A stretch of 64,000 nucleotides of DNA from the sequence record OR062947.1. One strand, 5' to 3'. Of the stretch, positions 27,639-41,050 are shown in pieces. The notes below the pieces were generated by a model. The model saw only the letters and a program-made list of their open reading frames with translations. It ran no database searches and was not told the origin of the DNA. Origin of the DNA: Escherichia phage 348Ecol098PP. Position numbers and translations under genes: made by a program. The stretch's first letter is position 1, and every line of letters starts with the position of its first letter.

Positions 27639-28190
27639 TTACTTAAAGATATTTATAATTCGTTTAACAAGTGATTTGCTTTCAAGGTCAGGGAATTTAG
27701 GGAATTCGCCGCCAAGATGTTCATGTTTTTCTAAAAGGGCAAAGAATTTTTTGAGCTCTTTAAATTTTCGTTTTTCTTCTCTATTAGCAACCTCTGCATC
27801 AATAAGAGAACTTAAAACGCTGAATAATTTATAGAGTTCATGAATTTTCTTATCACGTTGAACTACGCGTTTATATGCTTCATCTTCCTTCCACCCGTCG
27901 TCGGTCCAAATGTCAAATTCGCCAGGTTCTTCTGTAGTAACATTTTGAAGAGCACCTGGAGTGTCAATAACAATTTTTTGCTTATCATAAGTCCATACTG
28001 TTTTTCCACGATGGTCTTCAACGTATACCCATTCTTGTTCGCGTTCATCAAATACAACAGCATAGCCTTCTTTAGGGTCTAAAGGTTTTTTTGGTGTCGA
28101 ATGAGCCGGAAATCCTACGCCTTTTAATGGTTTATAATTTTCTTCTTTGTAAAATTCTTTTGTATCGAAATAAAAGTGATAAATTTTCAT
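27639..28190 (-). CDS. 38: tail fibre assembly/adhesin protein gp38 (T4 type)
   Basis: 183 aa; MKIYH.YFDTKEFYKEENYKP.KG.G.PAHST.KKPL.PKEGYAVVFDER...FALLEKHEHLGGEFP matches remembered T4 gp38. Confidence 0.9.
   Translation of the reverse strand: MKIYHFYFDTKEFYKEENYKPLKGVGFPAHSTPKKPLDPKEGYAVVFDEREQEWVYVEDHRGKTVWTYDKQKIVIDTPGALQNVTTEEPGEFDIWTDDGWKEDEAYKRVVQRDKKIHELYKLFSVLSSLIDAEVANREEKRKFKELKKFFALLEKHEHLGGEFPKFPDLESKSLVKRIINIFK
27650..27657 (-). promoter_or_regulatory. T4 late promoter TATAAATA (minus strand) upstream of t
   Basis: tatttata on the + strand is TATAAATA on the - strand, about 20 nt upstream of the t start, inside the 3' end of gene 38. Confidence 0.55.
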
Positions 28191-28217: not shown

Positions 28218-31200
28218 TTATGCTAAACGAACGATATAGTTAAAAGCAATGTTTTTAACTGTGTTTTCTGTATTACCTGTACTATTTACAGTGATAGTAT
28301 GACCGTGCGAACCAATTGCTACCGAGTGGGTATGAGCACCAATACCTACAGTATGTGTATGGGCACCAATACCTACAGTATGCGCGTGGTTACCTGTGGT
28401 ATTTGTAGTTCCAGACCAAGAGTGCGTATGGTTACCTTCTGTCGATGACTTTGCAATATATTGGCCTATACCAGGCACGATTTTGTCGCTCGTGGCAAAA
28501 GAAAGAACCTGGGTTCCGCTAATTGCAGTAGCTCCATTAGGATATATTCCTGTTGGTTGATTATTAGGACCCCTTGGACCGGTCTGTGAGTGTTGGTGGT
28601 TCCCTGCTGCGCCAGTAGTACCACTAACGCTATGGTTATGGTTACCTGTTGTGTTGCTGGTTTTAGTACCATAATCGAATGATGAGGTGGTTTTAGTACC
28701 ATAATCGAATGATGAGGTGGTTTTAGTACCCAAATCTGTGCTTGATGCACTTGCACTATGGCTATGAGACTTAATACCATCAGCTTCTGTACTTAATACA
28801 GCACGCCCGGATGGTTTACCCTTGATAGTTTGACCACGCATATCAGGCAGAGCGCCGGAAGGATACACCGCAGCTAACTTAGGATACAAGTCAGTATCAA
28901 ACGTCTGGCCTTCCATGATGGCATAACCTTCAGGAGGTGTATCAGTAGGCCAAGGAATCGGAGCACCAATTGGGTAACTCGAGACAATATCCGTCTTAAG
29001 GTTATTTATTGTGGTATTCAAGTTAGCAAAATTACCAGTGCCGCCAGTGATGTTACCATCAGTACCGAATTGAGCATTACCAACTTTTAATGGTTTTGAA
29101 AAAAGAACATCGTCGGTTCTAAATGCAACCCCATGACCTAATGCATTATTATATAAGTTAAGTTCATCTGAACTACCACTCCCATTACCAACGTACCATT
29201 TAACCGTATTAGCTTTTTTACCCTGAATATAAACAGCGTTGGTCAATGAAGCCGAGTTAATAATAAGCGCGGCGTTATTAGCGTTAATTGTGATAGCTTG
29301 CCCTGATGTTGTTCCACTAGTTTCTACTTTAAATCTTCCACCACCGATATCAACATCATGATCCATGGAAACTTTACCAGTACTTAATGTAATATAGAAC
29401 GGACGTAAATTAGAAATACCACCTGATTCACCAGCATTCTGCGGGGTTGGAATAATATAAAGCTTATCTTCAGAACGACGGAAAATAGCACCGTATTCGG
29501 CATTCCAAATTCTTAATGCATCAGCAGTTCCGCCAATTTTAACTTGTCCAGTAATAGAAGAACCACCTTGGACAAACAAACCATTAGACATGGTAACATT
29601 ACCACCAAAAGAACCTGTACCAGAGGCACTTATATTTCCGAGCCCGACAATATGTCCAGTTTCTACAGTACCATTAAATTTAAAGTTAACCGGACCTACT
29701 GTTTGACCTGATGCAGGAGCAGTGCGTTGTGCATAAAAATAATATCCATGCCCGTCAGCTAATTCAAAAACTGTTTCACGAGTACGAGCGCCAGATGCGT
29801 TAAATGAATTACCCCACGCTTTAATAGATACATAACTTTTATTCTGACCTGCACGAGTACCACCAGCCCACAGTATAGTTTTAGTACCATCTACTGCTGT
29901 AGGAGCGTCAAGTTGAATACCATCGGGTCTAGCGCCAGTAAGAACTAATCCGTTATCAAATTTAATTCTTTGTATTGAAGATACTGTTCCGTCCGCTCTA
30001 ATAGCAACGCTATTGGAACCGGTTTTAATATCTAAAATTCCTGGGTCAACAATAAGCCCTTCGGCCATACTAACGGACATACGACCTGTACCACGGAAAT
30101 AGTGATACATTTTAGAATTACTGTTATAACCGATATGAGTTTGTCCATCACCGTTATTATTTCCATCAACATCAGTACGCGCAGTAAACATTGCTTGGTT
30201 GTTATTTGGGTAATCCCAAGTAGTACCAGAATTGCGGCTATAACCGACCATCAATTTCTTAGTGCTGTTAATACCGTTATTCAAAATGGTAGCGGATGAA
30301 ATACCGTTAGCCATGAAATCAATAACACCGTCGCGGACCCATTTAATACCTGTATCGTTATCACCAATGGCAATACCAATAGAAATAGCTGAATCCAAAG
30401 GATAACGTCCATTTGTACCATTATCAGGAAGACCTACTGAAATAGATTTACCTGCAGTAATACGCCCACTAGTATCAAACGCCCATTGGAAAGATTCCGG
30501 ACCTATACCAGTCCACCAAGAAATTTCTTGTGGCTTTCCTGAACGACAATCAGCTATTTCATGGAAAATACTAGAAGTATTCGAAGCCCGCATCTTACGG
30601 AGGTAGTTAAGACCATTTGTATTACGGTCAGAGCCATCTGCCGGTGGATTATAAATCCACATAGGTAAAGAAACCCAATCGTATCCAATGTTAGCATTAG
30701 CTACAAATGTTTTTGTACTAAAATTAATATTTTTAGTAACAATTTCAGGACCGGTGATAATACCATTAGCAGAGTTTATATTGCCTGAAGCAGAAATATT
30801 ACCGGTACGAACTTCAATACTACCAGAATCTACGATGAAATTACCATTTCGATTAAAAGTCCAATATTTCGAATCACCAGCTTCATTAATATAGTGAAAT
30901 TTAAAACTACCTTCGTTTACTAATGTACCAGCAGAAAAAGTACCGTCTTTATAACGCTGCTTAATCAGAGGATGGTATTCTGATACTGAGGTAGCAGAGC
31001 TCAAATCCGTAAAGATAGGAGCTTTATTTAGGTGTTGATTTGCCCACGCGCCATTTCCAGCAGTTTTTGGCAAGAATTCAATATACTTTCCTGCATAAAC
31101 AAACTGGTTTCCATTAAGATTATATGTACCGTTTTGTAAATAATCACCATTTTGAGTTACATTACCGTTAATATCCCCGCCCTTAGCAAAGCCTAGGCTA

Positions 31201-31343
31201 ATAATATTACCGAGGTCATCTTTAGTAAAAAGAGTTCGATCTTTTAAGTTTATCGCTAATTCGCCTTCGGCTAATTGTGCTGCAGTAGGATTAACTCCTG
31301 CCACTTTGCTTCTTTTAAATTGTATCTGTTTTAATGTAGCCAT
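28218..31343 (-). CDS. 37: long tail fibre distal subunit gp37 (receptor-recognising)
   Basis: 1041 aa; N-terminus [16 protein letters not shown]....[11 protein letters not shown]; C-terminal His-box repeats (GxHxHxV) and position between 36 and 38. Confidence 0.9.
28335..28382 (-). repeat. coding tandem repeat (27-nt period) encoding gp37 His-box motifs
   Basis: gcaccaatacctacagtatg repeated; encodes [21 protein letters not shown]. Confidence 0.7.
28659..28731 (-). repeat. coding tandem repeat, 30-nt unit, about 2.4 copies, inside gp37
   Basis: ggttttagtaccataatcgaatgatgaggt repeated head-to-tail; encodes [10 protein letters not shown] x2 plus a partial copy. Confidence 0.85.
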
Positions 31344-32079: not shown

Positions 32080-33207
32080 TTATTCTGATGCTTCTTTAAA
32101 TTCTTGTCCAAATACCTTACCAGTATCAGTTGAAGATTGAGTAGGTAATGTCATTATGTCTGGGGCACTTAAAGACTCTGAAACATAATTTACACGAATA
32201 CCATTTATACCAAACTCGGCAGGTTTTGAAACGCTTCCATTACATGATACTTCAGTGAATATAACGTTTCTTAATCCACCTTGCCCGACTGGAGCTGTAC
32301 GATAACAATAAATCGTGAACCCGTCGGCATCAGCAGGAATTTCTATGTAGTCTTCATATATCTTCCATTCACCTGCAGTCCCATCAAAGTTTATATCCTT
32401 AAATGAAATAGGTGAAGTAGAAGGAGATTTAAAGAAACGAATAGAAAGTCGTGTCGTCCCTTGTGCTAACAAATCGGCATTGGCCATTAGTTGGAATTTC
32501 ATATAAAGGAAATCTCCAGGCTTCAATTTATACCCAGCGAGAGGTGTAATAATGGATGTTGTAGGCATCCTTTTAATTTCATTATTAGTACCTCCAATGG
32601 CAGATAAAAATGTGTCTGACGATTCATACGTACGACTAGGGAAGCCGGTAGCACCAATATCATCGATCGTGTCGTACACAACATCAAGTGGTGTACTATA
32701 GTCGGTTGAAGTTTTCTTATTACTATACTTAATATGTTCTAGTGCTATAGCATTCTTACCAGAAATATAAAATGCCGAATAAGAAATGTCCACTATATTT
32801 AAAACTTGTTGAGCTAATGGAATAGCAGAACTCCCAGCTTTAGTAAACCATGCGAGAACTTCAGGAGGAAAGTTTGTTTTAGCGTTAGTAACAAGAGCAA
32901 ATATAAAATTTGAAGCATATGTGTCCATGAAAGTAACAAATGCACTTGACGTGGCGTCGTTTTCAGTAGAGAAATTATATGACTTAGATTCAACTACTGC
33001 ACCTGTTGTAGGATTTATTACACGAACGTTTAATCCAACGGAAAAAACCTGGGACCCAAGTGGATTATCTTGGAACTTAATATAAGTAGGAGATGTTGAT
33101 AGCGGACAAGATCCCGCTATACTTAATTTAAATCGTACTGAATTGCTTTCCGATAAAAATGGCGTTTGGACGTATCCTTGTCCAAACTTAGCCATAAATT
33201 TTTCCAT
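32080..33207 (-). CDS. 35: long tail fibre hinge/connector gp35
   Basis: 375 aa ORF between 34 and 36. Confidence 0.8.
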   Translation of the reverse strand: MEKFMAKFGQGYVQTPFLSESNSVRFKLSIAGSCPLSTSPTYIKFQDNPLGSQVFSVGLNVRVINPTTGAVVESKSYNFSTENDATSSAFVTFMDTYASNFIFALVTNAKTNFPPEVLAWFTKAGSSAIPLAQQVLNIVDISYSAFYISGKNAIALEHIKYSNKKTSTDYSTPLDVVYDTIDDIGATGFPSRTYESSDTFLSAIGGTNNEIKRMPTTSIITPLAGYKLKPGDFLYMKFQLMANADLLAQGTTRLSIRFFKSPSTSPISFKDINFDGTAGEWKIYEDYIEIPADADGFTIYCYRTAPVGQGGLRNVIFTEVSCNGSVSKPAEFGINGIRVNYVSESLSAPDIMTLPTQSSTDTGKVFGQEFKEASE

Positions 33208-33215
33208 AATACCTC

Positions 33216-36200
33216 TTATTCAATCCACTCGAATTTAACAGATTTATTCACAGGGTCTGGAATAATGCGGACATTACCAATCCTTAAGAAATCCCTTATT
33301 GTCAAGTTTCCGATTGTTGCATTATCAGAAGGTAAAGCACCAATATCAGAAGGTTGAGGAGGGTTTCCACCATCAAATACCTGAACAAAACTTGACCAAG
33401 AATTTTTAGTTTTCTGCCATGTACGTGTCCAACGGGTTGTACGTGCTTCTGGAGTTGTTGGATAAGTAATCCAATCTTGGTAAAGTGAATCAAGTGTATT
33501 ACCAAACTGAGTCAATGTACCAGGAGATTTAACTTCTTCGCCACGTTCTAAGTATGGAAGCCCGGTCACTTCATTAGTTTTTTCAACCATTTTAAAATAA
33601 CCTGGGAACTGGTTATAAGTAGCTGAATCGTTAATATCGATTGACCAGAATCCTACAGTATCAGATGTTGGCGCACGAGTATATAAATCAGATGTTTTAA
33701 TACCCTGAGAACGAATTCTCGAGTTAACTGTTAAACCACCTGAATTTATAGTAGCACCTTTGGCAATGATTAAGCCTTCAGCAATCGTTACTTGGCCAGA
33801 TACATTATTAATAGCTAAAGGACGTAATCCACTAAATCCACCAGTCTGGCCTCCTGGATGGGTTAGCAAAAAATAGGTATTAGTGCCATCATTGCGAATA
33901 AGGAATCCGTAATCACCACTAATTGCTCTGAAAGCATTTGCAGACTTGCTAATGAATTCACCATTGGCTGTAACTGAACTACCAAATGTTGCAACGCCAT
34001 TCGCATTTAAAGAACCTGAAGCGTTAACATTTATCGGCATCACAGTACCGTTAACGCTAAACGTTATATTCCCAGCTTTATTACGTTGAGAATAAAAGTG
34101 ATTAGACGTTTCATCGCCAACTTCAAATATCGTAGAACGACTTGTATCAGAACCACCAGCGAATTGGTTACCCCATACTCTGATATTCATAGTTTGAAAC
34201 GGGTTATTTCCAGTTTGTGGTCCTTTTTCAAATATCAAACGAGTTGAAGCACCTGTATTACGAATAGTAAATGTGCTATTAGCAGCTAAAGAACCACCAA
34301 ATTCACCAGTACTAGATGATACAAGAGGGGCACTCAGATTCGTTTGTTGGGTTAAGGTTAGTGAACCATTAACTGTCTGGGCGATGTCCCTACGAATGAA
34401 CTGAGATGAATCTAGACCATCCAATAAATTACTATCTACAGCTTTTGCTTTTAATGGCAGATAATTTGCTAATACACGGTTTAATTCATATGGTGATACT
34501 GCATAGCTATTTTTCTCATATGATTCTAATGGCTGTGTTGAACCTACCGTATCATTACCAATGAACGTAATTGAACCAGATGAAGTTTTAACAAAACCTC
34601 TTATCGCAGTAGTAGCAGCCCATGTTGGTTCGTTCTGGACAATCCATTTTAAATTCTTAGGAGATACAGCAGTATTAGCAGAAGTTCCTGTTATAGTTTC
34701 AGCCTGAGTAGCAACCTTAATTACGCCTTCAGACGTTTCAGTGGACTTAGTCCCTAAAAGCTTTTTAGGAGTAATAAGAACATCATCTAAAGTTCCTGCA
34801 TTAGATTCTGCCTGGGTCGCTACGCGAAGTGTACCACGTTGTGTTTCATTTGCTTTAGAAATATCAAGAGTATAATGGTTCCACAAGGTTCCTTCTTCAA
34901 TAAGTCCGGAATCAGAATTAACACTGGTACGGTCAGAAGAATCAAAATGAGTTTTAATTTTCAGTGGAGTCGAGATACGAGTATCATCAGTTCCAGTATC
35001 AAATTCAACTTGCGTAGCAAGTTCGGCTATGCCGGATAATCCTTCCGTAGCTTTCCTATCATTTAACGTCTTAGGCGTTACTGCACGTGTATAATCAGTC
35101 CCAGCATTAGTTTCTGCTTGCGTAGCAATTTCAATTAAACCAATACGTCCATCAGTAGAAGTTTTCTTATGTAGTGTTTCAGGAGTTACTACAGCGTGAG
35201 AATAACCTGCTTGTGATTGGCCAGCAATTACTTCACTATCGACAGCTAAAATTACTGCACCTTGTTGAGCATAAGTTGCTTTATATTGGTCAAGGGCTTT
35301 AGGAGAAATAGTTAAATTATTTACGGTTTTATTATAAACGTTAGTGCCTGCAGCCCCACGAGTTTCAGCAGGAGTGGCAGAAGTAGTTGATACATATTTA
35401 ACTATACCCGATAGTGTTTCGGAACCCTGACGTGCCTGTAATTTCTTAGGTGTAATAATCGTTGTGTCATCAAGACCAGCATCGGTTTCAGCCTGAGTAG
35501 CAATTTCAGCAAGACCGCGACGAGTTTCAGTTGCTGTACGCTCATTTAGTTTTTTAGGCGTAACAATAGTATCGTCCACAAATGCTGCTGTGGAATTCTG
35601 GTTAACTTGTGCTGTTGTAGCAATTTTAGCGATACCACGTCGAGCTTCAGTTGCTGTACGATTTGCCAACGTTTCAGGAGTAATAGCCACTTCTTTAGCT
35701 GGAGTATTCTCTAAATCAACATTTGCTTGCGCTTGAGTAGCAAGAGCAATAACACCTAAACGAGCTCGTGTAGCATCAGTTCCAGCATCAACACGTTCTA
35801 CCGTAGGGACATTCTGTTGCACAACCCAATAACGTGTACCAGCAACGGTGTCTTCGATATACGCTAATTCTAATACAGGAACATATGAAGTAGTGCCATT
35901 GAATTCTAGTTCAGTAACAGAGACCCATTGAGCATCAGGTGGATATTCAGAACGTTTAGGGAACTGAAGCAATGCAACAGAAGAAGCAATTGTATCACCT
36001 TCGGCAGCTTTAATTTTTACTGTTTGGCCTTTACGCATGTAGTTCATTGAAATTTTAACAGTGTCACCACTCAAAATTCCGGAAGGCAGCGTAAGATTAA
36101 TAGTTCCGGCTGTAGCGTTATTTGTGCCAAAAATAAGAACTTCTTCATTTGGACGAATATTTGAATCCGCACGGATAATACGAAGACGCGATTTCTGGTC

Positions 36201-37091
36201 GCCTTCCCATATACGCCATAAACTATTTGCAGCATCAAAAACAAAAAACGCGTCAGAGTCATTTCTGCCTTCGGCAATATGAGTCCCGACTTCACCAATA
36301 GACGTTGTATCATCAAATGTTTTAACAATTGTATGATACAGTGGGTTTAATTTATCTAAATCAACTAGGTGGATTATATCACCATTGTTAGCATTACGTG
36401 GAAGTGTAATGTTGATTGGCGCTGCACTAGTAAAACGACGAACGATAAAATCATTTGCTTGTGCTTGATATGGTGCCGCAGGTGTAACAGTGATTGATTC
36501 TTTACCATAATCTATAATATACATCTGCCACAAACGATTACTAAACACAAACAATAGTTGTGAACGCGGACGCGTCATTAAAACTGTACGAACCTGTTCA
36601 CCTCTAAAGTTTAAAATACTCTGCACAGACGCGTTAATCTGTACTTTAACTGTCCCGGTTCTTCCACCAATATCAGCCAAAACAATAGTGTCACCATCAA
36701 CCGGCGCATTTGGCAACGTGAAAACCATATCATTGCCGGCACCAGTGTTAACCGAAATAGATTCACCTGAAGAAAGTTGATAAGTCCCAGAAGCGACAGT
36801 TATCCATTGTGCATCAGTACGAACTGCACGCCATTGTAAAAGGTTAAATGCCCCGGAAGGAGACACGATATCATTTATTGCTTGATATAAACGGTTGTCA
36901 TAAAGAACAACAAATCCTTTGTTATATCCACGCGTAGAATCATATACTTGAACGGTGTTTTCTTGTACCAGGAAGTCAACGTTTACGCCATCAGTACCTA
37001 CTGTACGGTCGGCTAATGCTACGTTAACAATCTTGTCGCCACCGGCGTCCAGACCGTCTTCGGCTCTGAACTTACGTTTGATGTCGGCCAT
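33216..37091 (-). CDS. 34: long tail fibre proximal subunit gp34
   Basis: 1291 aa (T4 gp34 is about 1289 aa); first gene of the late fibre operon; late promoter immediately upstream. Confidence 0.9.
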   Translation of the reverse strand: MADIKRKFRAEDGLDAGGDKIVNVALADRTVGTDGVNVDFLVQENTVQVYDSTRGYNKGFVVLYDNRLYQAINDIVSPSGAFNLLQWRAVRTDAQWITVASGTYQLSSGESISVNTGAGNDMVFTLPNAPVDGDTIVLADIGGRTGTVKVQINASVQSILNFRGEQVRTVLMTRPRSQLLFVFSNRLWQMYIIDYGKESITVTPAAPYQAQANDFIVRRFTSAAPINITLPRNANNGDIIHLVDLDKLNPLYHTIVKTFDDTTSIGEVGTHIAEGRNDSDAFFVFDAANSLWRIWEGDQKSRLRIIRADSNIRPNEEVLIFGTNNATAGTINLTLPSGILSGDTVKISMNYMRKGQTVKIKAAEGDTIASSVALLQFPKRSEYPPDAQWVSVTELEFNGTTSYVPVLELAYIEDTVAGTRYWVVQQNVPTVERVDAGTDATRARLGVIALATQAQANVDLENTPAKEVAITPETLANRTATEARRGIAKIATTAQVNQNSTAAFVDDTIVTPKKLNERTATETRRGLAEIATQAETDAGLDDTTIITPKKLQARQGSETLSGIVKYVSTTSATPAETRGAAGTNVYNKTVNNLTISPKALDQYKATYAQQGAVILAVDSEVIAGQSQAGYSHAVVTPETLHKKTSTDGRIGLIEIATQAETNAGTDYTRAVTPKTLNDRKATEGLSGIAELATQVEFDTGTDDTRISTPLKIKTHFDSSDRTSVNSDSGLIEEGTLWNHYTLDISKANETQRGTLRVATQAESNAGTLDDVLITPKKLLGTKSTETSEGVIKVATQAETITGTSANTAVSPKNLKWIVQNEPTWAATTAIRGFVKTSSGSITFIGNDTVGSTQPLESYEKNSYAVSPYELNRVLANYLPLKAKAVDSNLLDGLDSSQFIRRDIAQTVNGSLTLTQQTNLSAPLVSSSTGEFGGSLAANSTFTIRNTGASTRLIFEKGPQTGNNPFQTMNIRVWGNQFAGGSDTSRSTIFEVGDETSNHFYSQRNKAGNITFSVNGTVMPINVNASGSLNANGVATFGSSVTANGEFISKSANAFRAISGDYGFLIRNDGTNTYFLLTHPGGQTGGFSGLRPLAINNVSGQVTIAEGLIIAKGATINSGGLTVNSRIRSQGIKTSDLYTRAPTSDTVGFWSIDINDSATYNQFPGYFKMVEKTNEVTGLPYLERGEEVKSPGTLTQFGNTLDSLYQDWITYPTTPEARTTRWTRTWQKTKNSWSSFVQVFDGGNPPQPSDIGALPSDNATIGNLTIRDFLRIGNVRIIPDPVNKSVKFEWIE

Positions 37092-37121
37092 TCGTTTTTC
37101 CTTTATTGTTTCAATAATACT

Positions 37122-37129
37122 TATTTATA
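37122..37129 (-). promoter_or_regulatory. T4 late promoter TATAAATA (minus strand) upstream of gene 34
   Basis: tatttata on the + strand about 30 nt upstream of the gene 34 start. Confidence 0.6.
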
Positions 37130-37132
37130 CCA

Positions 37133-37175
37133 GTTTACGCTTTCAAATGAGTGTGTTACTATAGTCAAGTTGACT
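37133..37175 (+). promoter_or_regulatory. early promoter for rnh with palindrome at the start region
   Basis: gtttac at 37133, tactat -10, then agtcaa-g-ttgact palindrome. Confidence 0.45.
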
Positions 37176-37194
37176 AACTGAACAAGAGGTTCAT

Positions 37195-38112
37195 ATGGAT
37201 TTAGAAATGATGTTGGATGAAGATTACAAAGAAGGTATTGCACTTGCTGACTTTAGTAACATTGCATTAGCAGCCGCGTTAAACAACTTTGAAGACGGTG
37301 ATAAAATTACTGTTCCAATGGTTCGACATGTAATCTTGAATTCAATTCGTAAAAACGTAGTGATGTTCCGTAAGCAAGGCTATACAAAATTTGTATTGTG
37401 TATGGATAATGCTACTTCAGGTTATTGGCGTCGTGACTTTGCTTACTATTACAAGAAAAATCGTAAAACCGATCGTGAAGCTTCAAAGTGGGATTGGGAA
37501 GGATATTTTACTGCACTCCATCAAGTTGTTGATGAGATTAAGAAATACATGCCATACGTTGTAATGGATATTGACAAGTATGAAGCGGATGACCATATTG
37601 GTGTATTAACTAAATATTTGTCATTAGCTGGTCATAAGGTATGTATTGTTGCATCAGATGGTGACTTTACACAATTACACAAATATCCTAACGTTAAACA
37701 GTGGTCGCCACCACAGAAAAAATGGGTTAAAATTAAGAACGGTTCTGCTGAAATTGATTGCATGACTAAAATTCTTAAAGGTGACCGTAAGGATGGTGTC
37801 GCATCGGTTCGAGTTCGTGGCGACTTCTGGTTTACCAGAGTTGAAGGTGAACGAACTCCAAGCATGAAAACATCAATTATTGAAGCAATTGCTAACGACC
37901 GTTCTCAAGCTGAAGTATTATTAAGTGCAGAAGAATATAAACGGTATCAAGAAAATTTGGTTCTCATTGATTTTGATTATATCCCTGATAATATTGCTTC
38001 AACCATTATAGAGTATTATAACTCATATAAACCACAACCTAAAGGCAAGATTTATTCATACTTTGTAAAATCTGGTCTTTCTAAATTAACAAGTGTAATT
38101 AATGAATTCTGA
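37195..38112 (+). CDS. rnh: RNase H (5'-3' exonuclease, FEN-1 family)
   Basis: 305 aa; MDLEMMLDEDYKEGI...SGYWRRDFAYYYKKNR...YEADDHI..L...SDGDFTQLHKYPNVKQWSP..KKWVKIK.GSAEIDCMTKILKGD matches remembered T4 RNase H. Confidence 0.9.
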   Translation: MDLEMMLDEDYKEGIALADFSNIALAAALNNFEDGDKITVPMVRHVILNSIRKNVVMFRKQGYTKFVLCMDNATSGYWRRDFAYYYKKNRKTDREASKWDWEGYFTALHQVVDEIKKYMPYVVMDIDKYEADDHIGVLTKYLSLAGHKVCIVASDGDFTQLHKYPNVKQWSPPQKKWVKIKNGSAEIDCMTKILKGDRKDGVASVRVRGDFWFTRVEGERTPSMKTSIIEAIANDRSQAEVLLSAEEYKRYQENLVLIDFDYIPDNIASTIIEYYNSYKPQPKGKIYSYFVKSGLSKLTSVINEF

Positions 38113-38119
38113 GGTAAAC

Positions 38120-38389
38120 ATGGCTAAGAAAGAAGCAGTTGAATTTAATCAAGATGTGCATGGTGAAGAACTGGCTAAACTAGTCAAGGAAGCTTCCGAT
38201 AACAAACTTAAAATTTCTGGTTATAATGAACTGATTAAAGACATTCGTACTCGTGCTAAAGAAGAGCTTGGTGTCGATGGAAAAATGTTTAATCGTTTGT
38301 TAGCTCTTTATCATAAAGACGCTCGTGACCAATTTGAAGCTGAAAATGAAGAGGTAGTCGAGCTTTATGACACAGTTTTCACTAAGTGA
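38120..38389 (+). CDS. dsbA: dsDNA-binding protein DsbA (late transcription enhancer)
   Basis: ATG at 38120 with gaggt SD; 89 aa; MAKKE.VEF...KLKISGYNELIKDIR.RAK.ELGVDGKMFNRLLALYHKD matches remembered T4 DsbA. Confidence 0.8.
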   Translation: MAKKEAVEFNQDVHGEELAKLVKEASDNKLKISGYNELIKDIRTRAKEELGVDGKMFNRLLALYHKDARDQFEAENEEVVELYDTVFTK

Positions 38390-38705
38390 TATTAAACCGG
38401 TTGATGAGGCCGGTTTATCTGAACAAGAATTAGCAGTAAAACACGATAAAGATGATATCGCTAAATTGCTTGACCGACAAGAAAACGGATTCATTATAGA
38501 ATCCATGGTTGAACAATTTGGTATGTCTTATTTAGAAGCAACAACTGCGTTCTTGGAAGAAAATTCTATTCCAGAAACACAATTTGCTAAATTTATTCCT
38601 ACAGGAATTGTTGAAAAAATTACAAGCGAAGCAATTGACGAAAACATGCTTCGCCCGTCAGTTGCTCGTGGTGAAAAAACTAATACGTTAGATTTCTTAT
38701 TATGA
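38367..38705 (+). CDS. 33: late transcription co-activator gp33
   Basis: 112 aa ORF between dsbA and the 59/32 region. Confidence 0.75.
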   Translation: MTQFSLSDIKPVDEAGLSEQELAVKHDKDDIAKLLDRQENGFIIESMVEQFGMSYLEATTAFLEENSIPETQFAKFIPTGIVEKITSEAIDENMLRPSVARGEKTNTLDFLL

Positions 38706-39385
38706 AATACGTTGTGTATAAAACTACCAATAAAATAAATGGTAAAATTTATATAGGCGTACACAAAAAACATAAAGAGAAAGATTGGTATATTGGATCA
38801 GGCCGCGCTATATTAGCGGCCAAAGCTAAATATGGACTAAAAAATTTTTATACCGAAATTCTTTATGAATATGATAATGACAAGGACGCCTATAAAAAAG
38901 AAGCAGAATTGGTTAATGAAGATTTTGTTTTGCGAACTGATACTTATAACTTAGTTCCCGGTGGTAAAGGTGGCCCTGGTAAAAAACAAAGTGATGAAGC
39001 TAAAAGGGCTATTTCACTTTCTAAATTAGGTAAACCTAGATCTGAAGAGACTAAGGCTAAAGTATCTAAAACCAGATTAGAAAGAAAAATACCATCCCCT
39101 AATAAGGGTAAGAAACTATCTGAAGCTCATAAATTAGCTTTGAGTAAAGTCCGAAAAGGGCGAAAAACGAATAAGCCGATGCCTGATTCAACCAAAGAAG
39201 CTCTTAGAATAGCAAATTCAAAGCCGCATTCTAAAGAAAGAACTATTAAAAAACAAAAACCTATAATTATTGATGGTATAAAATACTCATCATGCACAGA
39301 AGTTTCGGATGTTTTTAATATTTCTGCATCTCTAGTTACGTATAGACTTAAATCTTCAAAATGGCCTGGATGGAACTATGATTAA
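38702..39385 (+). CDS. free-standing GIY-YIG homing endonuclease (Seg-like)
   Basis: 227 aa; N-terminal YKTTNKINGKIYIGV GIY-YIG module; basic C-terminal DNA-binding tail; inserted between 33 and 59. Confidence 0.75.
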   Translation: MKYVVYKTTNKINGKIYIGVHKKHKEKDWYIGSGRAILAAKAKYGLKNFYTEILYEYDNDKDAYKKEAELVNEDFVLRTDTYNLVPGGKGGPGKKQSDEAKRAISLSKLGKPRSEETKAKVSKTRLERKIPSPNKGKKLSEAHKLALSKVRKGRKTNKPMPDSTKEALRIANSKPHSKERTIKKQKPIIIDGIKYSSCTEVSDVFNISASLVTYRLKSSKWPGWNYD

Positions 39386-40031
39386 AATACGCATGCCTCC
39401 TGACGGAGAACGTTATATTAACGGTAAATCAGTATATAAACTATACTTGATGTGCAAAAACCACTTTGGTGGTCGGTATGACGTAATCAAATATAACTGG
39501 TGCATGCGTGTTTCGGATAATGCGTATCAAAAACGTCGAGATAAATATTTCTTTGAAAAACTAGCAGAGAAATATAAATTGAAGGAACTCACCTTGATAT
39601 TCATAAGCAACTTAGTTGCTAACCAAGACGCATGGATTGGTGAGATATCAGACGCTGATGCATTAGTTTTCTATAGGGAATATATTGGACGACTAAAACA
39701 AGCTAAAGAGACGTTTGCTGAAGACGTACGTAACATCTACTATTTCAGTAAGAAAGTTGAAGTTAGTGCGCTTCAAGAGATATTTGATTATAATAATAAA
39801 GTTCAGTCGAGCTACATATTTAAATTGCTACAAAGCAATATAATTTCATTTGAAACTTTCTTATTGTTGGACTCGTTTTTGAATATTATAGATAAGCACG
39901 ACGAACTCACCGATAACTTAGTCTGGCAAAATTATTCTACCAAATTAAAGGCATATCGAAAAATACTTCAAATCGATAGAAATGCTGCTAAGAAATTGTT
40001 CATAGAAACAATCAAATCATGTAAGTATTAA
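39378..40031 (+). CDS. 59: helicase loader gp59
   Basis: 217 aa; MIK.RMP..GERYI.GKSVYKLYLM.K.H..G.YDVIKYNWCMRVSD.AYQKRRDKYFF.KL.EKYKLKEL matches remembered T4 gp59. Confidence 0.9.
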   Translation: MIKIRMPPDGERYINGKSVYKLYLMCKNHFGGRYDVIKYNWCMRVSDNAYQKRRDKYFFEKLAEKYKLKELTLIFISNLVANQDAWIGEISDADALVFYREYIGRLKQAKETFAEDVRNIYYFSKKVEVSALQEIFDYNNKVQSSYIFKLLQSNIISFETFLLLDSFLNIIDKHDELTDNLVWQNYSTKLKAYRKILQIDRNAAKKLFIETIKSCKY

Positions 40032-40060
40032 GCTTTATTTCTTGTGTGTTAAAATTACTT

Positions 40061-40068
40061 TATAAATA
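40061..40068 (+). promoter_or_regulatory. T4 late promoter TATAAATA upstream of gene 32
   Basis: exact TATAAATA at 40061-40068. Confidence 0.5.
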
Positions 40069-40078
40069 AAACATACCA

Positions 40079-40147
40079 GCTACGAGGTATAAGTGTCGTA
40101 GCAACCAACTGTAAATAAATTAAATAATCTAAATAAAGGTAAATATA
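40079..40147 (+). promoter_or_regulatory. gene 32 mRNA leader: hairpin plus A/U-rich unstructured tract (candidate gp32 translational operator)
   Basis: gctacga...tcgtagc stem (40079-40102) followed by an about 45-nt A/U-rich tract up to the AUG. Confidence 0.55.
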
Positions 40148-41050
40148 ATGTTTAAACGTAAATCTACTGCTGACCTCGCTGCTCAAATGGCTAAACTGAA
40201 TGGTAACAAAGGTTTCTCTTCAGAAGATAAAGGCGAATGGAAGCTGAAGCTAGATGCATCCGGTAATGGTCAAGCGGTAATTCGTTTCTTGCCAGCAAAA
40301 ACTGATGATGCACTACCATTTGCAATTCTTGTTAACCACGGTTTCAAGAAAAATGGTAAATGGTATATTGAAAATTGCTCTTCTACACACGGTGATTATG
40401 ACTCTTGTCCTGTATGTCAGTACATTAGTAAAAATGACCTGTACAATACTAACAAAAATGAATATTCTCAACTGAAACGTAAAACTTCTTATTGGGCTAA
40501 TATTCTGGTTGTTAAAGACCCTCAAGCTCCAGATAACGAAGGTAAAGTATTTAAATATCGTTTCGGTAAAAAGATTTGGGACAAAATCAATGCAATGATT
40601 GCTGTTGATACCGAAATGGGTGAAACTCCAGTTGATGTTACTTGTCCGTTTGAAGGTGCCAACTTCGTTCTGAAAGCTAAGCAGGTTTCTGGTTTTAGCA
40701 ACTATGACGAATCTAAATTCTTGGGTCAATCTGAAATTCCTCGTATTAATGACGAAGCATTCCAGAAAGAACTATATGACCAGATGGTAGATCTTACTAC
40801 TTTGACGGCTAAAGACCAGTTCAAATCCTTTGAAAAATTAAATGAATCTTTCGCTAAGGTTCTTGGTACTGCCGCTCTTGGTGGTGCAGCAGCCGCAGCA
40901 GCTTCTGTTGCAGATAAAGTTGCTTCTGACCTTGACGATTTTGATAAAGACATGGAAGCCTTTAGTTCTGCAAAAACTGAAGATGACTTCATGAGCTCTA
41001 CCTCATCCTCTGATGATGGTGACCTCGATGACCTGTTAGCTGGTCTATAA
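40148..41050 (+). CDS. 32: single-stranded DNA-binding protein gp32
   Basis: 300 aa; [16 protein letters not shown]...FLP; acidic C-terminal tail. Confidence 0.92.

Follow-up and report, generated by a model that had tools for sequence, protein, structure and literature searches.

The window analysed here is the whole 64,000-nucleotide stretch of Escherichia phage 348Ecol098PP (sequence record OR062947.1), and the feature under study is a short tandem repeat within gene 37, which encodes the distal subunit of the long tail fibre (Table 1). The locus reads gp36, gp37, gp38 and holin t, an arrangement shared with T4, and the gp38 located next to gp37 matches Pfam Caudo_TAP and has the size and the position of T4 gene 38, which identifies it as a T4-type chaperone and not as a gp38 adhesin of the T2/T6 type. 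The gp37 protein aligns with T4 gp37 over its full length (53% identity) and contains the Pfam domains PF20744 gp37_trimer, at residues 692-767, and PF07484 Collar, at residues 793-840 (E = 1.5e-11, which exceeds the curated cut-off). Its last 260 residues were compared with the PDB using phmmer and matched the T4 tip structure 2XGF (chain 2xgf_A, E = 2.6e-78), the match spanning query residues 1-138 and 195-260, i.e. both flanks of the variable tip. On these matches the protein is assigned as a T4-type gp37 with a C-terminal collar-needle-tip adhesin of the 2XGF type. The genomic backbone around the locus shares 96-97% identity with Mosigvirus genomes, against only about 80-90% between gene 37 and any deposited record, a mosaicism of the kind usually seen in this gene.

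Table 1. Features of gene 37 and its neighbour in the window (positions are those of the whole stretch; residue numbers refer to gp37 of this phage unless T4 is named)
Feature	Position	Strand	Evidence or remark
Gene 37 (1041 aa and stop codon), distal subunit of the long tail fibre	28218..31343	minus	ORF, Pfam, T4 alignment, 2XGF match
Gene 38 (183 aa), T4-type chaperone for tail fibre assembly	27639..28190	minus	Pfam Caudo_TAP; located as gene 38 is in T4
30-nt tandem repeat, 2.4 perfect copies	28658..28730	minus	Tandem Repeats Finder (TRF); longest perfect period-30 run 43 nt
Three decapeptide units, outward (descending) stem strand	28647..28736	minus	Codon positions of ORF 28218..31343
His-x-His motif 1 (H860, H862), top of the stem beside the collar	28758..28766	minus	Aligns with T4 H883/H885
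His-x-His motif 2 (H902, H904)	28632..28640	minus	42 residues past motif 1; T4 distance 32
His-x-His motif 3 (H916, H918), last of the outward strand	28590..28598	minus	Aligns with T4 H929/H931
Variable tip (head) insert, residues 919-971	28431..28589	minus	Flanked by His-x-His motifs 3 and 4; equivalent of the T4 tip (932-959)
Return-strand His-box array, H986..H1015 (peptide of 32 residues)	28299..28388	minus	Three 9-residue spacings, one unit more than T4
27-nt tandem repeat encoding His-box units, 2.7 copies, 84% matches	28311..28382	minus	TRF; partner of the 30-nt repeat

The 30-nt repeat, which Tandem Repeats Finder reports with 100% matches, no indels and a score of 146, ranks as the strongest tandem repeat of the 64-kb window, and the second-strongest is the 27-nt unit found 300 nt away, also in gene 37. 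Forty-three consecutive positions of the 30-nt repeat match the base located 30 nt further on, an identity that is beyond chance. The repeat is in frame with the gene 37 ORF and encodes a peptide of 25 amino acids (residues 870-894). In codon terms three successive decapeptides are recognized, at residues 870-879, 880-889 and 890-899, and residues 880-889 constitute the unit that is missing in T4. An earlier reading of this DNA from sequence only had described a 30-nt unit repeated about 2.4 times head-to-tail, in frame, in the C-terminal part of gp37, which was confirmed both by Tandem Repeats Finder and by the ORF translation; it had placed the repeat at 28659-28731, where a repeat is indeed present, but one base away from the interval obtained with the program. 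A chance or low-complexity origin of the repeat is ruled out by the 43-nt perfect offset identity combined with the conserved reading frame. The presence of a second gene over the repeat, on either strand, was also considered and rejected: the sole overlapping ORF of at least 60 aa is a mechanical, unsupported ORF of 104 aa (28466..28780), on the same strand as gene 37 in a different frame.

In T4, the C-terminal part of gp37 is divided into a collar (D10, residues 811-881 plus 1010-1026), a stem (D11, residues 882-931 plus 960-1009) and a tip (residues 932-959), and the replacement of H929/H931 by alanine abolishes plaque formation (PMC6957217). The flank 812-931 (T4 numbering) is described as conserved throughout the family of T4/lambda receptor-binding proteins (PMC9659904), and this family, with its conserved flanks and its variable tip, has already been well described (PMC6957217, PMC9659904, PMC9603124). 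The spacings between successive His-x-His motifs are 42, 14, 56, 14, 9, 9 and 9 residues in the present gp37 and 32, 14, 37, 14, 9 and 9 in T4, followed in both proteins by a C-terminal tail that measures 29 residues if the leading His of the final motif is taken as its start. The tip insert (residues 919-971) is probably the receptor-contact region. As for the repeat, its T4 counterpart corresponds to residues 893-907, which belong to the outward strand of the D11 stem, lie between the H883 and H915 motifs and inside the conserved flank 812-931, and end about 25 residues ahead of the tip. The sequence-only reading had situated the repeat in the receptor-binding region and upstream of the His boxes. 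The repeat in fact maps to the stem (T4 893-907 within 882-931, the tip being 932-959), and it is found within the His-box region, between motif 1 (H860/H862) and motif 2 (H902/H904).

The comparison with T4 gp37 (2XGF) reveals a common organization, both proteins having the collar, the His-x-His array, a shared C-terminal peptide of 26 residues, the gp36-37-38-t gene order and a T4-type gp38, together with a difference of one unit on each strand of the stem. The alignment with 2XGF contains a clean 10-residue gap, where 26 residues of T4 face 36 residues of this phage, and the outward strand has exactly one decapeptide more than that of T4. On the return strand, at the far side of the tip, a 9-residue insertion relative to T4 corresponds to one more VGIGAHTHx His-box unit. 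The protein thereby differs from T4 gp37 by one outward decapeptide and one His-box nonapeptide, with 8 His-x-His motifs versus 7, and the lengths of the two stem strands are 60/59 residues as compared with 50/50 in T4. The tip insert exceeds that of T4 by about 19 residues and is unrelated to it in sequence, and many further indels, including several larger gains and losses, are found towards the N-terminus. It had been suggested that the repeat could explain part of the length difference between this protein of 1041 residues and T4 gp37; the repeat does contribute 10 residues, but the overall difference of 15 residues is the net result of many indels.

The antiparallel register of the two stem strands was established from the offsets to the ends of D11, and this register reproduces the published T4 contacts G921-F970 (offsets 39 and 39) and H929-G964 (offsets 47 and 45). 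It sets T4 residues 893-907 opposite residues 984-998, a peptide of 15 residues that corresponds to the return-strand His boxes. Because the segment 893-907 faces these His boxes and is level with them, each outward unit is expected to be matched by one His-box unit, and the outward units would pack side by side with the return-strand His-box units. AlphaFold2 was run on a monomer comprising residues 782-1041, with an alignment of 39 sequences, and yielded a mean pLDDT of 48.7 and a pTM of 0.19, scores too low for the model to be used, as is expected for the monomer of an interwoven trimer.

The spacing of His-x-His motifs was measured in 120 close homologs, 150 representatives of clusters defined at 50% identity and 80 IMG/VR loci plus phage records, which provided 337 analysable sequences, equivalent to 158 distinct stems. 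The filter applied to the C-terminus was relaxed, since its stricter form loses the five-pair and six-pair stems. The regular expression anchored on the collar missed a number of sequences (L036, L042, P0015 and others), and the ones read by eye obey the pairing rule described below. Where H1 and H2 are 32 residues apart, the number of terminal 9-residue spacings is always 2; it is 3 at a distance of 42 (or 41), 4 at 52, 5 at 62 and 6 at 73. In general terms, a distance of 12+10k residues from H1 to H2 is accompanied by exactly k His-box spacings of nine residues in the return strand (k ranging from 2 to 6), and the present gp37, with a spacing of 42 and three 9-residue spacings, follows the same relation. 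The pairing is obeyed by 335 of the 337 sequences and by 156 of the 158 distinct stems. In 100,000 shuffles, which ignore the relatedness of the sequences, the number of matches never reached 156, the maximum being 99. The copy number of the outward unit had been presented as variable through slippage, and it is instead equal to the count of 9-residue His boxes on the return strand in all but two of these 158 distinct stems.

Two sequences depart from the rule. The failure of P0218 is only apparent, motif 2 being absent, and the one real exception is L009, in which three outward units are associated with two His-box spacings. L009 is a 10.5-kb metagenomic T4-like contig (IMGVR_UViG_3300030021_000020) with a gene 37 that is 88.6% identical to that of TuIa, and it has lost exactly one 27-nt unit of the return strand by a deletion between direct repeats. 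In a search with this sequence, all phage rows among the matches listed aligned the 753-base query to 777-780 bases, meaning that each of them has the extra unit. L009 may represent either a genuine rare variant or an assembly collapse; should it be real and functional, a mismatch in the number of units would be tolerable.

Stems with the same number of pairs were reached by different routes. Three-pair stems arise by duplication of a DYG unit (in this phage and in TuIa) or of a DLG unit (P0194, P0202, P0152), and four-pair stems either by a 20-residue double-unit duplication (P0190, P0191, P0203) or through three DLG units (P0212, P0225). These layouts clearly suggest several independent origins for the stem expansions. 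The length of the tip is independent of the number of pairs, ranging from 33 to 58 residues in three-pair stems and from 35 to 56 residues in two-pair stems. We tentatively propose, as a generalization that may or may not hold throughout the family, that the needle stems of T4 gp37 and lambda Stf are built of matched modules, each made of a 10-residue outward unit and a 9-residue His-box unit that together would add one iron site; both repeats would expand and contract jointly, selection removing the unmatched products of slippage and gene conversion keeping the units similar. No statement of a one-to-one pairing between decapeptides and nonapeptides was found in the literature searched, outside which fall the primary T4 structure paper and the genetics papers of 1990 and 1996; no priority is claimed for the pairing rule, which may have been described before.

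The extra unit is shared by other phages. The gp37 of TuIa (GenBank X55190, sequenced in 1990; Montag, Hashemolhosseini and Henning) carries the identical peptide repeat, within an identical peptide of 35 residues, and its His spacings (42, 14, 55, 14, 9, 9 and 9) differ from the present ones by a single residue, at the 56-residue interval. The TuIa tip has a different sequence, and TuIa is reported to use OmpF as receptor (PMC9659904). Its two DNA units, unlike those of the present phage, have diverged, the longest perfect period-30 run being 11 nt as against 43 nt. The same unit layout was found in the eight Mosigvirus and Tequatrovirus loci that were fetched (L001-L008). Most of the full-coverage T4-like matches listed align 683 bases to 683 bases, with no length difference, and nearly all of the rows listed align 135 bases to 135 bases over the repeat region, with 168 records covering at least 80% of the query. 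These comparisons indicate that the three-pair layout is old and common to TuIa and to many T4-like phages, and that it is neither private to this phage nor the product of a recent duplication. The feature is of a known kind, already represented in public sequences. At the nucleotide level, exact searches for the 30-mer unit in IMG/VR, JGI metagenomes and GTDB genomes gave no occurrence. Complete E. coli genomes, queried by megablast with the 141-nt region, contained no match, and the best deposited match to this region has 88% identity. Neither a copy-number variant nor a donor of this allele was found in IMG/VR, JGI metagenomes, GTDB, E. coli genomes or deposited records. An effect of the repeat on host range had been put forward; with a repeat that is invariant among the relatives examined and maps to a conserved, non-variable part of the stem, this idea largely fails.

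What distinguishes the present allele is the similarity of its DNA copies. Perfect period-30 identity extends over 43 nt at its longest here; among 37 other loci that have at least three units, the longest such run does not exceed 20 nt and is typically 8-11 nt. Between the two DNA units, relatives show 22-25 identical positions out of 30. With units taken in the Asp register the count here is 28 of 30, and in the register of Tandem Repeats Finder the repeat is perfect throughout its 73 nt. The derived codons ACC TCA TCA TTC occur in both units of this phage; the codons of relatives are ACT TCT AGT TTT in unit 1 and ACG ACT TCA AGC TTT in unit 2. Unit 1 here retains its own Asp-Leu codons (GATTTG). 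Parallel substitution is a very unlikely source of the shared codons. A perfect run of 43 nt, set against at most 20 nt in relatives, would imply a recent intragenic conversion, and a short conversion tract within the gene, or an equivalent exchange that preserves copy number, would be the simplest account of the homogenisation. The partner 27-nt repeat is partly homogenised, with a longest perfect period-27 run of 20 nt, as in a few relatives. The 30-nt repeat had also been called slippage-prone, and this allele, with its perfect copies, is indeed a better substrate for slippage than those of relatives; the products to be expected would, however, have unmatched strands, which are almost never seen in nature.

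Our preferred explanation, to which we give a probability of roughly 0.85, is that the repeat is an ordinary paired stem unit of the gp37 needle, in an old three-pair layout, whose DNA copies have been homogenised without a change in copy number. The 30-nt repeat encodes decapeptides that belong to the outward strand of domain D11, the needle stem. Each chain of the trimer would run through this domain from the collar to the tip and back, and the His-x-His motifs of the three chains would form an axial line of iron sites. The outward segment comprised between His motifs 1 and 2 is predicted to be level with the 9-residue units of the return strand (VGIGAHxHx), each added 10-residue outward unit being presumably matched by one added 9-residue His-box unit. 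The present stem has three pairs with eight His-x-His motifs, and that of T4 two pairs with seven motifs; the stem is about 10 residues per strand longer than in T4 and would bear one more predicted iron site, the eighth. Changes in the number of units on one strand only would be expected to be harmful. The DNA of neighbouring decapeptides is homogenised in this phage alone, most likely by intragenic gene conversion or unequal exchange with the copy number unchanged.

The repeat could otherwise be seen as a recent slippage duplication in the receptor-binding region, with a variable copy number that alters the geometry of the tip and the host range. A perfect 73-nt repeat lends itself well to slippage or to recombination over short homologies, it adds one unit relative to T4, and duplications in the adhesin region of gp37 attributed to Tetart et al. 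(1996) reportedly widened the host range of T4. Those duplications are said to have been selected in the laboratory, among T4 host-range mutants, as duplications of a small adhesin domain, and reportedly are bounded by His boxes and include the segment that determines specificity. The present repeat resembles them in being an in-frame tandem duplication in the C-terminal part of gene 37, and would differ from them in being a fixed, conserved stem unit located outside the tip. The same copy number in TuIa and in every T4-like row examined, the position of the repeat in the conserved stem and not in the tip, the tie between its copy number and the return-strand units, and the lack of any allele with a different copy number in the collections searched all stand against a recent slippage event, which we regard as highly improbable. 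An assembly or sequencing artefact is the least credible of all: mis-assembly of tandem repeats does occur, perhaps also as a collapse in the exception L009, and nothing specific points to one here, where the repeat (73 nt) is shorter than a typical read, the reading frame is kept and the number of units is the one required by the return strand and seen in relatives.

A more serious alternative, although we judge it unlikely, concerns the origin of the perfect identity. Either a unit was lost in this lineage and its neighbour duplicated again, in two steps, or a stem segment with identical units was imported from an unsampled donor. The derived codons common to both units, and the mosaic character of gp37 (96-97% identity in the backbone versus 80-90% in gene 37), would both be accommodated in this way. 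A loss followed by a regain would however pass through an unmatched intermediate, with two outward and three return units, and the unmatched state was met in only 1 of 158 distinct stems; for an import, no donor with the exact 30-mer was found in IMG/VR, JGI metagenomes or GTDB genomes. Replacement of a whole unit also accords less well than a short conversion tract with the retention by unit 1 of its own Asp-Leu codons. Homogenisation of an old paired unit by a copy-number-preserving exchange is retained as the preferred reading.

Comparable tips are found beyond the T4-like phages. Those of lambda Stf and of enterobacterial prophage tail fibres have in common with the present gp37 the collar and needle architecture as well as the C-terminus (PMC9659904), and lambda Stf and prophage tail-fibre proteins constitute most of the matches listed in the large protein search. 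They differ from it in having both two-pair and three-pair stems and unrelated N-terminal shafts, and some of them are without the two 14-spaced His motifs beside the tip (pattern 42, X, 9, 9, 9). The tips of the long and short tail fibres of Bas63 (Felixounavirus) also have a T4-like collar, needle and head; the remark made about them rests on three structures and does not state a one-to-one pairing of decapeptides and nonapeptides.

By itself the repeat changes little, being a conserved structural part of a tail-fibre tip that has been studied in detail. Its homogenisation, with the number of units unaltered, offers a small and clear case of concerted evolution under structural constraint, and serves as a warning that not every perfect in-frame repeat in an adhesin gene is a host-range switch. 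The strict pairing, observed from two to six pairs, suggests that the length of the needle changes in fixed steps and that both strands need to be altered together in engineered fibres. If the pairing rule has not been described previously, it would provide a simple route to tail fibres of chosen stem length.

The 27-nt repeat that encodes the return-strand His-box units of gp37 carries a perfect period-27 run of 20 nt, where the typical value is 5-6, and is homogenised in part; its partner, the 30-nt repeat of the outward strand, is homogenised too. Perfect period-27 runs of 20-23 nt were also found in a few relatives (the fetched nucleotide loci L006 and L008), which indicates that the return-strand repeat is also subject to exchange between units. 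Across the 158 distinct stems scored for pairing between outward-strand decapeptides and terminal 9-residue His-box spacings, the sole real exception was L009:601-1353 (IMGVR_UViG_3300030021_000020), with three decapeptides and two spacings. This mismatch results from the exact loss of one 27-nt unit by comparison with genes of the type of phage TuIa; it could be tolerated, the variant could be defective, or the assembly could have collapsed.

The region is strongly mosaic: the neighbouring 8 kb encode gp34, RNase H, the ssDNA-binding protein and others and are 96-97% identical to Mosigvirus-type phages (e.g. AV110 and phiEC1), whereas the best identity of gene 37 to any record is only about 80-90%. 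The nearest protein found for its tip was P0121, a 541-aa cluster representative from the homolog searches (89% identity). The tip insert exceeds that of T4 by about 19 residues and has no sequence relationship with it; neither T4 nor TuIa nor lambda Stf reveals the receptor of the phage by homology. The top two matches of the first large protein search, P0001 and P0002, are annotated as tail fiber proteins of Shigella sonnei and Shigella flexneri; their contigs measure 113 kb and 165.9 kb, the latter being the size of an entire T4-like phage genome, and these contigs may be lytic phage genomes deposited as bacterial assemblies.

Features of the gene 37 region and its surroundings
Feature	Window position	Strand	Description
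Gene 37	28218-31343	minus	gp37
27-nt His-box repeat	28311-28382		return-strand units
Tip insert	28431-28589		residues 919-971, between His motifs 3 and 4
Hinge-connector protein	32080-33207	minus	375 aa, gp35 position
Neighbouring 8 kb	33000-41000		Mosigvirus-type

The hinge-connector protein matched the Pfam ILEI (interleukin-like EMT inducer) domain (E = 4.7e-7) with 30.7 bits, slightly over the cut-off of 27. This family name is unexpected for a phage fibre protein, and the match probably reflects a small beta fold in common.

A big subgroup of prophage tips (P0042-P0119 and others) lacks both of the 14-spaced His motifs on either side of the tip, the distances between successive His-x-His motifs following the pattern [42,X,9,9,9] or [32,X,9,9]. 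Decapeptides and His-box spacings remain equal in number in this subgroup despite the missing motifs, while the number of predicted iron sites beside the head domain would be lower by two in its stems.
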